From positions 5,673 to 69,672 of the forward strand of contig JAUHXZ010000002.1 in NCBI GenBank assembly GCA_030426725.1: a DNA stretch of 64,000 nucleotides, in the 5' to 3' direction. The first letter of the stretch is position 1. Every line of letters begins with the position of its first letter. The position numbers were made by a program, and so were the translations under genes. The notes under the pieces were generated by a model. That model saw only the letters and a program-made list of their open reading frames with translations, did not search any database and was not told where the DNA came from. Positions 5,699 through 47,092 of the stretch are shown here, piece by piece. The stretch is from Actinomycetes bacterium (GTDB lineage: Bacteria > Actinomycetota > Actinomycetes > Propionibacteriales > Propionibacteriaceae).

Positions 5699-5884
5699 TC
5701 GAGCAACCTTTTCAATCGGCGACTGGGAGCGTGGTGCGTCCCAATCTTGGAGGTGGATAGTGTCGGCCGTCACCCGGGCACGCACGCGCGTCCGCACATA
5801 GACGACCGACGCACCACTCTACGCGAGGCGACCCCCGATCCCCAAATCCGCCCCGGCACGCAGAGCTACCGCTACCAGGGCATG

Positions 5885-5919
5885 AAAAAAGGGCTCCGCC
5901 GCGGTGCGCGGGGGCCCTT
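5885..5919 (-). terminator. Intrinsic terminator after infA
   Basis: GC hairpin AAGGGC...GCCCTT followed by a U6 tract on the minus strand. Confidence 0.6.
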
Positions 5920-5949
5920 CTCCCGGTCGGCGCATCGGCGCCGGGTGGA

Positions 5950-6171
5950 TCACTTGTGCCGGTAGACGATGCGGCCGCGGGTCAGGTCGTAGGGCGACAG
6001 CTCGACGACGACGCGGTCCGCCGGCAGGATGCGGATGTAGTGCTGGCGCATCTTGCCGCTGATGGTCGTAAGGACCTTGTGGCCGTTGGCCAGCTCGACG
6101 CGGAACATCGCGTTGGGGAGGGCCTCGACCACGGTGCCCTCAAGCTCGAGGGCTCCTTCTTTCTTCGCCAT
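5950..6171 (-). CDS. infA: Translation initiation factor IF-1
   Basis: [27 protein letters not shown]...[15 protein letters not shown]. Confidence 0.98.
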
Positions 6172-6256: not shown

Positions 6257-6296
6257 ACTCCCCTCCGCGCGGCCGCCTCAACCCGGGCCCACGCCC

Positions 6297-6720
6297 GACG
6301 CCAGCCATACCGCTCGACGCCTGCGCAATAGCGCATGCAACCCACAGCAAGGCCGGCGTCTGCGACTCAGGAGCGCACAGCCGGCGGCCAACAGGATGAG
6401 GTGGCGAGGGGTGGGGACGGGGCAGGTTGGGTGGGCGTCGCGACCGGACCGGCGCGAAGCGCCCGTCCCGGGAGCGTGGGCGGCCCGGCCATCAGCATGA
6501 GGGTGGCGAGGGGTGGGGACGGGGCAGGTTGGGTGGGCGTCGCGATCGGACCGGCGCGAAGCGCCCGCCCCGGGAGCGTGGGCGGCCCGGCCATCAGCAT
6601 GAGGGTGGCGAGGGGTGGGGACGGGGCAGGTTGGGTGGGCGTCGCGATCGGACCGGCGCGAAGCGCCCGTCCCGGGAGCGTGGGCGGCCCGGCCCCACCC
6701 CTCGACACCCGGGCTGGGCA
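6297..6720. repeat. Dispersed structured repeat, copy A (leader domain + 3 tandem 102-bp units)
   Basis: Units start at 6390, 6491 and 6593; homologous to 41481-41710 and 46568-46999. Confidence 0.92.
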
Positions 6721-6808
6721 ACAACTGGGCGGTAGGGCGGCGGAGGGCACAGTTTCGACGCGACGGCGCTTCGCGCCGGTCGGCTCAACCCACGGCGACG
6801 CGGGGGCG

Positions 6809-20081: not shown

Positions 20082-20123
20082 ATCGTGGCGGCAAGAATCA
20101 GCATGCTGACTCCCCCGCACACG
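20082..20123. repeat. 42-bp imperfect palindrome, direct-repeat copy 1
   Basis: 40/42 identical to 20934-20975; core TCAGCATGCTGA. Confidence 0.9.
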
Positions 20124-40065: not shown

Positions 40066-41451
40066 ATGACCACCATCTGCTGGTTTCGACGAGGGCTCCG
40101 CCTGGACGACCATCCCGCCCTCAGTGCGGCCGCGGCCGGCGGCCCCGTGGTCCCGCTGGTGATCCTCGACCCCGCGGAGGCCGCGGCGCGGCCGGCGTCG
40201 GCGGAACGGCAGGCACTCGCTCTCCGCCCGCTCGACGAGGCCCTGCGCCGGCACGGCAGCCGGCTCGTCGTGCGGCGCGGCCAGCCGAGGGAGGTGCTCC
40301 GGGACCTCATCGCGGAGACCGGGGCGACGGTCGTCCACACAACGGCGGGGTTCCCGTCGGCCTCCGATGACGACCCGGCGGCCGCGGTGCAGGCGTGCGG
40401 GGCCGAGCTGCGCGTCCATCCTCCGGGGGACCTGGCGGAGCGGGGGTCGGTCCTCACCGGCGCCGGCGGAACGTTCAAGGTGTTCTCGCCGTTCTTCCGG
40501 GCGTTGAAGCGGGTCGACGTCGCGGCTCCGATCGGGGTGCCCGAACTCACCGCCCCGGCGTCGTGGCCGGGCTCGGAGCCGCTCGACTGGTCCGAGGCGC
40601 GGGCGTCGATGAGGCACGGCTGGGATCCCGTGGCCCGCGCGGCCCGGCCCGGCGCAGACGCGGCCCTCGGGTCGCTGGAGGAGTTCCTCGACGGCCCGGT
40701 GGCGGACTACCCGGAGCACCGGGATCTGCCGGGCCTCGCCGCCACCTCGGGGCTCTCGGACGCGCTCGCCGTCGGGGAGATCAGCGCCCGGAGCGTCTGG
40801 CACCGCTGCCTGCCGGCCTGGCGCTCGGGGGCGCCGGGCGTCGAGGACTTCCTGTCCGAGCTCGCCTGGCGGGAGTTCGCGCGGGACCTGCTGCACGACT
40901 TCCCGGAGCTCGCGACCCGGTGCTGGCGGCCCGAATGGGAGCACTTCCCCTGGGAGGGGGACTCCGACGCGGCGGAGGCATGGCGGCGTGGCGAGACCGG
41001 CGTCGAGATGGTCGACGCCGGGATGCGTGAACTGTTCGCCACCGGCCGGATGCACAACCGCGTGCGGATGATCGCCGCCAGCTACCTGACCAAGCACCTG
41101 CTCACCGACTGGCGCGTCGGGCTGGCGTGGTTCGAGCAGACGCTCACCGACTGGGACGCGGCGTCGAACGCGATGAACTGGCAGTGGGTGGCCGGCTGCG
41201 GCCCCGACGCATCGCCGTTCTTCCGGGTCTTCAACCCGGACACGCAGGCGAAGAAGTTCGACGGCGACGGCGCCTACCGCCGCTACTGGCTCTCCCCCGA
41301 CGGGGCCGGCGCCCGACTCTTCGCCGAGGCGGCGCCGAGGTCCTGGGGGGTCGACCCTTCCGCCCCGCGCCCCGAGCCGCTGGTGGACCTGTCGGCCGGC
41401 CGGGCCCGCGCGCTGGCCGCCTACGAGTCGCTGCGGGCCGCCAACTCCTGA
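40066..41451 (+). CDS. phrB: Deoxyribodipyrimidine photolyase (class I-like)
   Basis: WFRRGLRLDDHPAL, TSGLS, ELAWREF, GRMHNRVRMIAASYLTK, DWR, NWQW, PFFRVFNP. Confidence 0.9.
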   Translation: MTTICWFRRGLRLDDHPALSAAAAGGPVVPLVILDPAEAAARPASAERQALALRPLDEALRRHGSRLVVRRGQPREVLRDLIAETGATVVHTTAGFPSASDDDPAAAVQACGAELRVHPPGDLAERGSVLTGAGGTFKVFSPFFRALKRVDVAAPIGVPELTAPASWPGSEPLDWSEARASMRHGWDPVARAARPGADAALGSLEEFLDGPVADYPEHRDLPGLAATSGLSDALAVGEISARSVWHRCLPAWRSGAPGVEDFLSELAWREFARDLLHDFPELATRCWRPEWEHFPWEGDSDAAEAWRRGETGVEMVDAGMRELFATGRMHNRVRMIAASYLTKHLLTDWRVGLAWFEQTLTDWDAASNAMNWQWVAGCGPDASPFFRVFNPDTQAKKFDGDGAYRRYWLSPDGAGARLFAEAAPRSWGVDPSAPRPEPLVDLSAGRARALAAYESLRAANS

Positions 41452-41480
41452 CCTGCCCGTCTTCCGTAGGTCTCATTCCC

Positions 41481-41710
41481 GACGCCAGCCATATGTCGCA
41501 ACGCCTGCGCAATTGCGCTGGCATCGCGCACCAAGACTGGCGTCCACCGGTGATGAGCGCCCAACCGCCGGCCAACAGCATGAGGGTGGCGAGGGGTGGG
41601 GCCGGGGCAGGTTGGGTGGGCGTCGCGAATGGAGAGGGCGCGTGTCGCGCACTCTCCAGAGCGTGGGCGGCCCGGCCCCACCCCTCGACACCCGGGCCTG
41701 GGCACAGTTC
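41481..41710. repeat. Dispersed structured repeat, copy B (single unit)
   Basis: Same leader and arms as copies A and C; different apical hairpin. Confidence 0.9.
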
Positions 41711-41806
41711 TCCTGACCGGCTCCGGCTCAAACGGCGGATCGCAAGCGGGATCGGCGTGTCGGGGGTTGGGGCTGCACCCCGGGGTTGGCTACAGTCAAC
41801 GGCCGT

Positions 41807-43558
41807 ATGTCTTCCTCCGCGCTGGACCATCTCTCCCCCGCCTTCCCGCAACGCGCGGCGTGGGGCACGGCGTCGTCGCTGCGCGCCTGGCAGCAGGCGG
41901 CCCTCGAGCAGTACGAGCGCGACCAGCCGCGGGATTTCCTCTGCGTTGCCACACCCGGTGCCGGCAAGACCACGTTCGCGCTGCGCATCGCCACCACCCT
42001 CCTGGCCTCCCGGACGGTGCGCCGCATCGTCGTGGTGACTCCCACTGAGCACCTCAAGGTGCAGTGGGCCGACGCCGCGGCCCGGGTGGGCATCCAGCTC
42101 GACCCAGGGCTCGGCGGATCGTCGCGCCGCGGCCGGTCGCGGGAGTACCACGGCTCGGCCGTCACGTATGCGGGCGTCGCGGCCCGCAGCTACGTCTACG
42201 AGGCCCTGTGCCACTCGAAGGAGACGCTGGTCATCTTCGACGAGATCCACCACGCGGGCGATTCCAAGAGCTGGGGCGAGGCGGTGACCTACGCCTTCAC
42301 GCACGCCGCCAGGCGGCTGTCCCTCACCGGCACCCCGTTCCGGTCGGATGACAACCCGATCCCGTTCGTCTCGTACGACGAGGTCGCGCCGGGGGTACGT
42401 CAGTCGCACGCCGACTACACCTACGGTTACACCGAGGCGCTGGCCGACCACGTCGTCCGCCCGGTGCTGTTCATGAACTACGGCGGCCAGATGCGCTGGC
42501 GCACCAAGGCCGGCGACGAACTGGCGGCCGACCTCGGGGTGCCGATGACCAAGGACCTCACCGCCAGCGCCTGGCGCACCGCACTCTCCCCCACCGGTGA
42601 GTGGGTGCAGGCGGTGCTGCGGGCCGCTGACACCCGCCTGACCGAGGTGCGCCGCCACGTCCCCGACGCGGGCGGGCTGGTCATCGCCACGAACCAGACC
42701 ACGGCGCGCGCCTACGCGAAGCTGCTGCACGAACTCACCGGCCACAAGCCCTGCGTCGTGCTGTCGGACGACCAGAAGGCCTCGTCGCGGATCGAGGAGT
42801 TCGCCGAGTCCGACGACCGTTGGATGGTGGCGGTGCGGATGGTTTCCGAGGGTGTCGACGTGCCCAGGCTGTCGGTGGGCGTCTACGCCACTGCGACCTC
42901 GACGCCGCTGTTCTTCGCCCAGGCCGTGGGCCGGTTCGTCCGGACCCGGCGTCGCGGCGAGGTGGCGACAGTGTTCCTGCCCACGGTGCCAGTGCTCCTG
43001 GCGCACGCCGCCACGATCGAGAAGCAGCGCGACCACGTCCTGGGCCGCCCAGCGAAGGACGAAGCCGACATCTGGGCCGAGACGGAAGCGCTGATGGAGC
43101 AGGCCAACCGCAAGGAGGCGGCTTCCGACGACCTGCTGGGCCAGTTCGAGGCGATCGAGTCGAACGCGACGTTCGACCACGTGCTGTTCGACTCGCAGGC
43201 GTTCGGGATGCACGCCGAACCGACGACCGCCGACGAGCAGGACTATCTCGGTCTGCCGGGCCTGCTGGAGCCCAGCCAGGTGACCGCCCTGCTGGCGGAC
43301 CGGCAGCGCCGGCAGCTGCGCCGCCGCGAACGCCACGACAAGAAGTCCGAGCCGGAGGTGCCGCTGCACCGGGCGCTCGCGTCGAAACGCAAGGAGCTCA
43401 ACTCCTTGGTGGCGCAGTACGCCCGTCTCAGGGGCGTCCCGCACAGTCACGTCCATGCGGATCTGCGCCGCGAGTGCGGCGGGCCGCCGTTGGCGTCGGC
43501 ATCGCAGGATCAGGTCGACGCCCGGGTGCGCGCCATCCGCGGCTGGCTGCGCGGTTAA
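41807..43558 (+). CDS. SF2 DEAD/DEAH-box helicase
   Basis: TPGAGKT, FDEIHH, LSLTGTP, VRMVSEGVD, QAVGRFVR. Confidence 0.9.
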   Translation: MSSSALDHLSPAFPQRAAWGTASSLRAWQQAALEQYERDQPRDFLCVATPGAGKTTFALRIATTLLASRTVRRIVVVTPTEHLKVQWADAAARVGIQLDPGLGGSSRRGRSREYHGSAVTYAGVAARSYVYEALCHSKETLVIFDEIHHAGDSKSWGEAVTYAFTHAARRLSLTGTPFRSDDNPIPFVSYDEVAPGVRQSHADYTYGYTEALADHVVRPVLFMNYGGQMRWRTKAGDELAADLGVPMTKDLTASAWRTALSPTGEWVQAVLRAADTRLTEVRRHVPDAGGLVIATNQTTARAYAKLLHELTGHKPCVVLSDDQKASSRIEEFAESDDRWMVAVRMVSEGVDVPRLSVGVYATATSTPLFFAQAVGRFVRTRRRGEVATVFLPTVPVLLAHAATIEKQRDHVLGRPAKDEADIWAETEALMEQANRKEAASDDLLGQFEAIESNATFDHVLFDSQAFGMHAEPTTADEQDYLGLPGLLEPSQVTALLADRQRRQLRRRERHDKKSEPEVPLHRALASKRKELNSLVAQYARLRGVPHSHVHADLRRECGGPPLASASQDQVDARVRAIRGWLRG

Positions 43559-46520: not shown

Positions 46521-46567
46521 CTTGATTCAGGGCCAGTGGGCGTCGCATCGCAGCGCGAAAGACGACC

Positions 46568-46999
46568 GACGCCAGCGCTCCTGTCCGACGCCCGCGCCAT
46601 TGCGCTGGCATGGAGCAGCAAGGCTGGCGTCCACAAAGTGATGAGCACCCACCCGCCGCCACCAGCACGAGGGCGTCGAGGGGTGGGGCCGGGGCAGGTT
46701 GGGTGGGCGTCGCGACCGGGCCGGCGCGAAGCGCCCGTCCCGGGAGCGTGGGCGGCCCGGCCACCAGCATGAGGGCGTCGAGGGGTGGGGCCGGGGCAGG
46801 TTGGGTGGGCGTCGCGACCGGACCGGCGCGAAGCGCCCGTCCCGGGAGCGTGGGCGGCCCGGCCACCAGCATGAGGGTGGCGAGGGGTGGGGCCGGGGCA
46901 GGTTGGGTGGGCGTCGCGACCGGACCGGCGCGAAGCGCCCGTCCCGGGAGCGTGGGCGGCCCGGCCCCACCCCTCGACACCTGGGCCTGGGCACAGTTC
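46568..46999. repeat. Dispersed structured repeat, copy C (leader domain + 3 tandem 102-bp units)
   Basis: Units start at 46661, 46763 and 46865. Confidence 0.92.
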
Positions 47000-47092
47000 C
47001 GCTGGCGGGCGGACGTCGGTTTCGACGCGGGGACGTCGCAGAGCGACGTCGCCCGGCTCACCCGCGGGGTGGCCGGGCCCGACCGGCGAGGA

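Follow-up and report, generated by a model that had tools for sequence, protein, structure and literature searches.

A probably structure-constrained mosaic repeat with a variable hairpin tip in a Tessaracoccus/Arachnia genome

The window analysed here is a 64,000-nt stretch of DNA from a Tessaracoccus/Arachnia genome assembly of 2.92 Mb in 144 contigs. It contains three loci, A, B and C, of a repeat made up of modules designated L, U and T. Module U is ~100 nt long and consists of an outer helix, an internal loop and a variable inner hairpin, the variable end of which is referred to as the tip. The outer helix has at least 18 bp and covaries. The internal loop is asymmetric (17/7 nt) and carries conserved G runs, GCAGGTTRGGTGGGCGT / TGGGCGG. 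Its consensus is 5' G-C-R-GG-N2-4-GG-Y-GGGC-R-T on the 5' side and (T)GGGC-R-G on the 3' side. In full copies of the repeat the tail 3' of U holds the hairpin module T. The features of the three loci are as follows.

6296..6360, unstranded: module L, locus A
6398..6712, + strand: locus A, three tandem 102-nt U units with tip type T1 (array of 102-nt units at 6385-6694)
6753..6790, + strand: module T, locus A (TTTCGACGCG, hairpin, GGCTCAACC)
41480..41544, unstranded: module L, locus B, a 65-nt palindrome (CGACGCCAGCC...GCGCAATTGCGC...GACTGGCGTC) upstream of U, found also solo elsewhere
41584..41606, + strand: unit B, outer helix, 5' arm (pairs with 41671..41693; covariation)
41607..41623, + strand: unit B, internal loop, 5' strand GCAGGTTGGGTGGGCGT (G runs invariant in 38 distinct members)
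41624..41663, + strand: unit B, whole inner hairpin, with CGC/GCG closing pairs, a GA/AG internal loop and then the tip (folding; inner-stem covariation)
41630..41658, + strand: unit B, tip, type T2 (pattern match and folding)
41664..41670, + strand: unit B, internal loop, 3' strand TGGGCGG (conserved across family members)
41671..41693, + strand: unit B, outer helix, 3' arm (pairs with 41584..41606; covariation)
41694..41734, + strand: degenerate tail, locus B (GGGCCTGGGCACAG...GGCTCAAAC), T hairpin lost
46567..46631, unstranded: module L, locus C
46672..46982, + strand: locus C, three tandem 102-nt U units with tip type T1 (array of 102-nt units at 46658-46966)
47020..47063, + strand: module T, locus C

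An earlier note on this DNA had described A, B and C as three copies of a repeat that carry different tips of like architecture between identical flanks. There are three loci, but A and C each consist of three tandem units. The pattern CGTCGCGA-N20-40-GAGCGTGGGCGG gave seven matches in the window, all on the + strand (positions 6436, 6538, 6640, 41621, 46708, 46810 and 46912), and none in shuffled sequence. The tip of unit B (41630-41658, +) is TGGAGAGGGCGCG-TGT-CGCGCACTCTCCA, a 29-nt hairpin of 12 bp with one G.A mismatch and a 3-nt loop. All six units of arrays A and C have the tip CCGGACCGGCGC-GAA-GCGCCCGTCCCGG or single-base variants of it. When both tip versions were folded with their CGCGA/GAGCG flanks, the architecture was nearly identical: 3 bp, a GA/AG internal loop, 6-7 bp, a 1x1 mismatch, 5 bp and a 3-nt loop. 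Folding energies of -23.9 and -24.8 kcal/mol were obtained, and the z-scores relative to shuffled sequence were -3.0 and -4.4. The seven matches and the folding of both versions confirm that different tips of like architecture lie between identical flanks. The two tips had also been called largely unrelated, which holds for the lower 7-8 bp and the loop, but is too strong as a whole because the five loop-proximal pairs (GCGCG/CGCGC) are identical.

In the tandem arrays A and C the outer helix is complete in the last unit only. The units join at a CCGGCC that the 3' arm has in common with the end of L, consistent with slippage or unequal exchange. The period of 102 nt equals 34 codons. A coding origin was considered and dropped: the units are intergenic, and GC-rich DNA gives spurious long ORFs in several frames. 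A 42-bp repeat elsewhere in the window (20082-20123) has no sequence relation to L, U or T. A tRNA/tmRNA scan found none, and Rfam gave no match in the whole window at either gathering or permissive thresholds, the best sub-threshold matches being chance microRNA models.

U is present in the genome as 36 units at 28 loci, with 1-3 tandem units each. There are 29 copies of module L, 14 of them without U, and 30 copies of module T, 16 of them without U. Since L, U and T occur solo as well as combined, the repeat is a mosaic of modules. The nested palindrome around GCGCAATTGCGC in module L is an independent repeat family in its own right, about half of its 29 copies lying away from U. By crude gene calls the U loci are mostly intergenic; several have a called ORF spanning the element. 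The repeat is a probable cause of assembly breaks, several copies having been found at contig ends. Defective copies, in which L is fused to the tail or U ends inside the tip, were seen at C86:1990-2060, C144:32323-32355, C143:4700-4781 and the end of contig C28.

The tips of all 36 units were tabulated, as the earlier note had proposed, and fall into at least four types. About 30 units have type T1. Type T2 is found in unit B and in C15. Type T2' (C40 and C85) shows a compensatory A:T to G:C change relative to T2, and C1 and C68 have singleton tips. T1 varies mostly in its 3-nt loop (GAA, GGA, GCA, AGA). Changes in its stem consist of wobbles, one A.C mismatch, two bases added near the stem base and one compensated whole-pair deletion (C26). 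Random, non-pairing substitutions in the other copies would speak against selection on structure; the substitutions are mainly in the loop, and those in the stem are mostly wobbles or compensated. Together with covariation of the inner pairs, this upholds the proposal that the tip is under a pairing constraint. The outer helices are of three very different types, which combine variously with T1 or T2'. The C85-type outer stem, for example, is joined to T2' in C85 and to T1 in C122. Outer-stem and tip types combine differently, and the phrase "a variable cassette in a constant scaffold" describes the element fairly.

The distribution of U was examined using an exact pattern, GGTTRGGTGGGCGT-N30-60-TGGGCGG, with the reversed pattern as a control. 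The pattern matched in 6/68 Tessaracoccus/Arachnia genomes and the reversed control in none. A scan of one genome per species across bacteria and archaea added Micropruina and Varibaculum cambriense. Some 30 singleton matches fell in unrelated phyla; they had neither of the helices and were set aside as chance. Covariance model R1, for which 26 diverse U members were used, identified U in 23/401 Propionibacteriaceae genomes belonging to three genera, mostly with 1-5 copies per genome. In a class-wide sample the model found U in 0/400 other genomes, and the source genome alone matched (1/401). Copy number rises in bursts to dozens in single species. V. cambriense is an actinomycete of another order (52-58% GC). 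Its three U copies (L116: 284-379, 3061-3156 and 3466-3562) surround ispG-proS, their stems covary, and one lies 46 nt upstream of proS in the sense orientation. The patchy distribution of U across orders may reflect horizontal transfer.

In Tessaracoccus sp. MC1679, U is set among different accessory modules. As other species embed U in other modules, U is the sole module common across species. Contig 1 of another genome (G057, 623850-624343) carries three direct tandem U copies that repeat every 188 nt, which shows that tandem amplification is found in other species too, with another unit length. Tips from other species are unrelated in sequence, range from 23 to >70 nt and have arbitrary loops, some of them large. 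All of them close as a hairpin directly between GGGCGT and TGGGCGG.

In a 26-sequence alignment of U, 86% of the cells pair, vs. 61% in shuffles. Double changes were found at 23/24 pairs, and the observed values were reached by 0/500 shuffles and by no slid register. The first six pairs of the tip have double changes at 6/6 positions. One position of the outer helix is G-C, T-A, A-T, C-G or G-T among the paralogues of this genome. Orthologous copies in the gyrB-gyrA, rsmE-tgt and sufC-sufS spacers differ between species by compensatory pairs. Both helices of U covary, while the tip may take any sequence that still closes as a hairpin. The tip keeps its shape because the U module is constrained as a fold. 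Compensation in DNA palindromes is also possible via templated repair or gene conversion within the palindrome, and is therefore no proof by itself of selection on an RNA.

The four G runs of the loop (GG, GG, GGG and GGG) and its two GGGC motifs show no variation among 38 distinct members, partly through ascertainment, since the search pattern and the model both demand the core. Between the G runs letters and lengths vary (TT(R), T(R), TTT, CGC or TGC; and T or C). A G-quadruplex would be expected to show such a pattern. The sequence has the four runs of two or more G and the short loops that one requires, and on that basis the conserved runs may form one. The G-rich strand could then be the functional one, either as a small RNA or as a DNA template strand, with a loop G-quadruplex clamped between the two helices and serving as a ligand- or protein-binding site or as a roadblock to transcription or replication. 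The invariance of the runs alongside varying spacers fits such a role, as do the sense copies that lie before some genes, e.g. proS of Varibaculum. The helix wobbles (G.T 46 vs. A.C 20) give a weak preference in the same direction. Most copies are, however, antisense to flanking genes, a scan of positions 41300-41900 found no promoter-like site (and no terminator-like site on either strand), and the way in which members were found accounts for part of the invariance. We therefore consider a functional G-rich strand improbable.

The earlier note had likened the tip to a guide or specificity module. On this reading the tip would be an exchangeable cassette that steers the scaffold to different targets, and it would account for the different tips between identical flanks and for the shuffling of tips with outer stems. 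In this genome U is also found beyond the 3' end of a nuclease gene that has the same orientation (see below), which recalls the guide RNAs of TnpB and IscB. The tip itself argues against a guide: it is nearly all paired, with a loop of 3 nt, and there are only about four types in 36 units. The suggested search with the arms of the unit B tip yielded few near-matches (with one mismatch allowed, the 13-mers match 6 times and once elsewhere in the genome, as raw counts without a chance expectation). BLAST of the whole element against phage and plasmid sequences gave no match. A single match in a pattern scan of IMG/VR had no outer helix and was rejected as chance. Tips of 23 to >70 nt with arbitrary loops in other species are likewise not what a guide would predict, and we find this role for the tip hardly credible.

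The position of U relative to genes is asymmetric. At 18/24 loci in this genome, the gene 3' of the G-rich strand lies on the opposite strand, usually 20-120 nt off. The same arrangement was found at 7/9 and 6/8 loci in two other high-copy genomes and at 16/18 low-copy loci, a statistic that overcounts because many of the low-copy loci are orthologous and not independent. Relative to this neighbouring gene the C-rich strand of U is sense and lies shortly past the stop codon. Co-directional spacers in this genome show no orientation preference (5 vs. 4).

U was present in 4/19 gyrB-gyrA spacers examined in one genus (18 species). The other spacers are 25-40 nt long and nearly empty, or contain a different palindromic repeat. 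This presence and absence across species means that U has been gained and lost. The gyrB-gyrA spacer of this sister genus, probably Micropruina (L194-L212), is a repeat hotspot, and the alternative palindromic repeat, GTCATCCCGGCGAACGCCGGGATCTC, is found in several tandem copies in L194. At locus B, relatives do not share the gene order upstream of the helicase gene, leaving no empty-site comparison. Target-site or terminal duplications of U were not seen.

A role at transcript 3' ends can be proposed by analogy with TRIT of Mycobacterium and with Correia elements. U would be gained and lost in intergenic spacers and would be tolerated, or useful, mainly just downstream of genes. Its C-rich strand would be transcribed into a 3' UTR or an intercistronic RNA, and the folded transcript would be a two-helix hairpin of great stability in which C-rich strands are exposed unpaired. 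Such a hairpin could influence 3'-end formation or stability in one or more ways, as an RNase III substrate, as a barrier to 3' exonucleases or as a loading site for Rho or for some other factor. A putative factor would probably recognise the conserved loop, with the tip needed only to close the helix. Transcript 3' ends and apparent RNase III cleavage fall where TRIT and Correia elements lie, and REP elements at the 3' ends of genes are likewise cited as shaping transcript ends, presumably via RNase III (PMC3152330; PMC13714241). Taken alone, this RNA-level role is a tentative proposal with the odds somewhat against it. A long stable hairpin leaves the invariant G runs of the loop unexplained. 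The explanation of U as a repeat of this kind is also weakened by the missing U-tract (a T-run follows neither arm, so that U does not resemble an intrinsic terminator), by the lack of a preference in co-directional spacers, by the lean of the wobbles toward the G-rich strand and by the failure to find a mobilising enzyme or target-site duplications.

No enzyme that mobilises U was identified. The Y1/RAYT transposase (PF01797) was found in 0/20 Tessaracoccus/Arachnia genomes, all high-copy ones included, while control genomes matched. This genome has about six close paralogues (83-88% amino acid identity) of a gene for a ~500-aa endonuclease with DUF222 (PF02720) and HNH (PF01844) domains.

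Contigs C71, C83, C112, C105, C124 and C59, outside the window: DUF222-HNH paralogues

Five of the paralogues are followed, within ~35 nt of the stop codon, by U and T on the same strand. In three there is in addition L with a reverse-complement T on the 5' side, so that inverted T modules bracket the gene. The U copies at these genes are 95-100% alike, more so than the genes themselves. The only similarity to IscB is a weak match to the HNH domain. DUF222 plus HNH is the architecture of the REP13E12 repeats (PMC10589994). In Tessaracoccus lapidicaptus (NZ_MBQD01000001.1, 5463-6275), a 111-aa GIY-YIG ORF (5743-6078) lies between two inverted U copies; other short tandem repeats surround this region. 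A GIY-YIG partner was rejected here, as this genome encodes no homologue.

By analogy with the REP hairpins recognised by RAYT, or with the ends of IS200/IS605, U could be a DNA-level element whose single-stranded or cruciform fold is recognised by the nuclease or recombinase responsible for copying or moving U; DUF222-HNH is the candidate partner. The genes bracketed by inverted T or U modules and the gain and loss of U between species are consistent with such an element. So are the many tips that end in GCGAAGC, a DNA mini-hairpin of unusual stability. Motif-bearing genomes also tend to have more DUF222 genes (mean ~9 vs. 5 in motif-negative genomes), although the count tracks the motif loosely and reaches 11 and 24 in two genomes without the motif. 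A general partnership with DUF222 was rejected, as U does not adjoin DUF222 genes in eight other genomes tested. The absence of a Y1/HUH transposase from the 20 genomes and of visible terminal duplications also argues against a DNA-level element. The nuclease genes beside U are of two different families, which fits hitch-hiking, or preferential insertion into repeats, as well as it fits partnership. On balance we view the DNA-level explanation as unlikely. A more specific version, in which U is a functional structured cofactor or recognition element of DUF222-HNH (REP13E12-type) endonucleases and the loop is a G-quadruplex or another G-run fold, is very improbable. If it were true, a large uncharacterised actinobacterial nuclease family would gain a structured RNA or DNA partner, as IscB has in HEARO.

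The reading that we prefer, with a probability of roughly 60%, is that the element is a mosaic repeat under structural constraint and that its tip does not act as a guide. We infer that the U family is a non-autonomous, selfish-type repeat of the same kind as REP/BIME, BOX, Correia and TRIT. The shuffling of outer stems and tips suggests that the tip of unit B was acquired when diverged members recombined across the conserved core. Recombination or gene conversion of this sort, followed by compensatory drift, is the most likely origin of the replacement, which does not look like programmed cassette exchange.

The U family is of a known general kind, the closest relatives in kind being REP/BIME, BOX, Correia and TRIT. 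It is apparently undescribed, having no Rfam match and no description encountered in passing in the literature. Like REP/BIME, it comprises multi-copy extragenic imperfect palindromes that form mosaics with short modules, lie in intergenic regions and at operon 3' ends, show compensatory stem evolution and differ greatly in copy number between related genomes. A REP, however, is a ~35-nt hairpin with a 5' GTAG, whereas U is ~100 nt long with two coaxial helices and a 17/7-nt internal loop of G runs. The core of U is conserved across genera, and the Y1/RAYT gene of REP/REPIN systems is absent from the 20 genomes searched. Nor does U have the form of a REP/REPIN, a short imperfect palindrome of ~20-40 nt with a conserved 5' tetranucleotide that often occurs in inverted pairs; U is mostly single or in direct tandem. 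It agrees with mosaic repeats of the BIME or BOX type in having several module types, solo and combined, and in being present or absent at orthologous sites.

BOX of Streptococcus pneumoniae (boxA-boxBn-boxC) is a structured intergenic element of three modules, the middle one tandemly repeated in variable number. The arrangement L-Un-T (n = 1-3) resembles it, although the sequences are unrelated and BOX belongs to another phylum. Unlike those of BOX, the modules L, U and T also occur solo and in other orders.

Integron attC sites share with U the conservation of structure over sequence and conserved boxes that flank a variable terminal structure of differing lengths. U has neither the R/L core sites of attC (RYYYAAC / GTTRRRY) nor cassettes between copies, an integrase was not noted in its surroundings, and the likeness is conceptual only. 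U also differs from an omega-RNA-like scaffold of TnpB or IscB in that its variable part is base-paired and its linkage to a nuclease is confined to this genome. REP13E12 of Mycobacterium tuberculosis has the DUF222-HNH architecture of the gene that lies beside five U units here. REP13E12 is, however, itself a gene-bearing repeat, while U is non-coding, mostly gene-free and unlinked to DUF222-HNH in other genomes. The association of U with DUF222-HNH and GIY-YIG genes is nevertheless a lead on how such repeats spread without RAYT.

High-GC actinobacteria have few canonical terminators. U-like elements are candidates for shaping mRNA 3' ends in these organisms, as TRIT is in Mycobacterium. TRIT is a lineage-restricted GC-rich palindrome without a U-tract, found in many copies at gene termini (PMC3152330; PMC13714241). 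Its authors proposed a binding factor from the high sequence conservation, and 3'-end mapping suggests RNase III processing (PMC3152330; PMC13714241). TRIT, a short, near-perfect and mostly bidirectional palindrome, overlaps stop codons (around -8), whereas U is found 20-120 nt after them and is a strongly asymmetric element with a variable tip. The comparison, which drew on the published description of TRIT (PMC3152330), showed no sequence similarity between the two. For annotation, recognising the U family averts false ORF calls and explains contig breaks. Within the general kind to which U belongs, three features together are unusual: the conserved internal loop of G runs, the two freely covarying helices, and persistence in housekeeping spacers alongside bursts of copy number.
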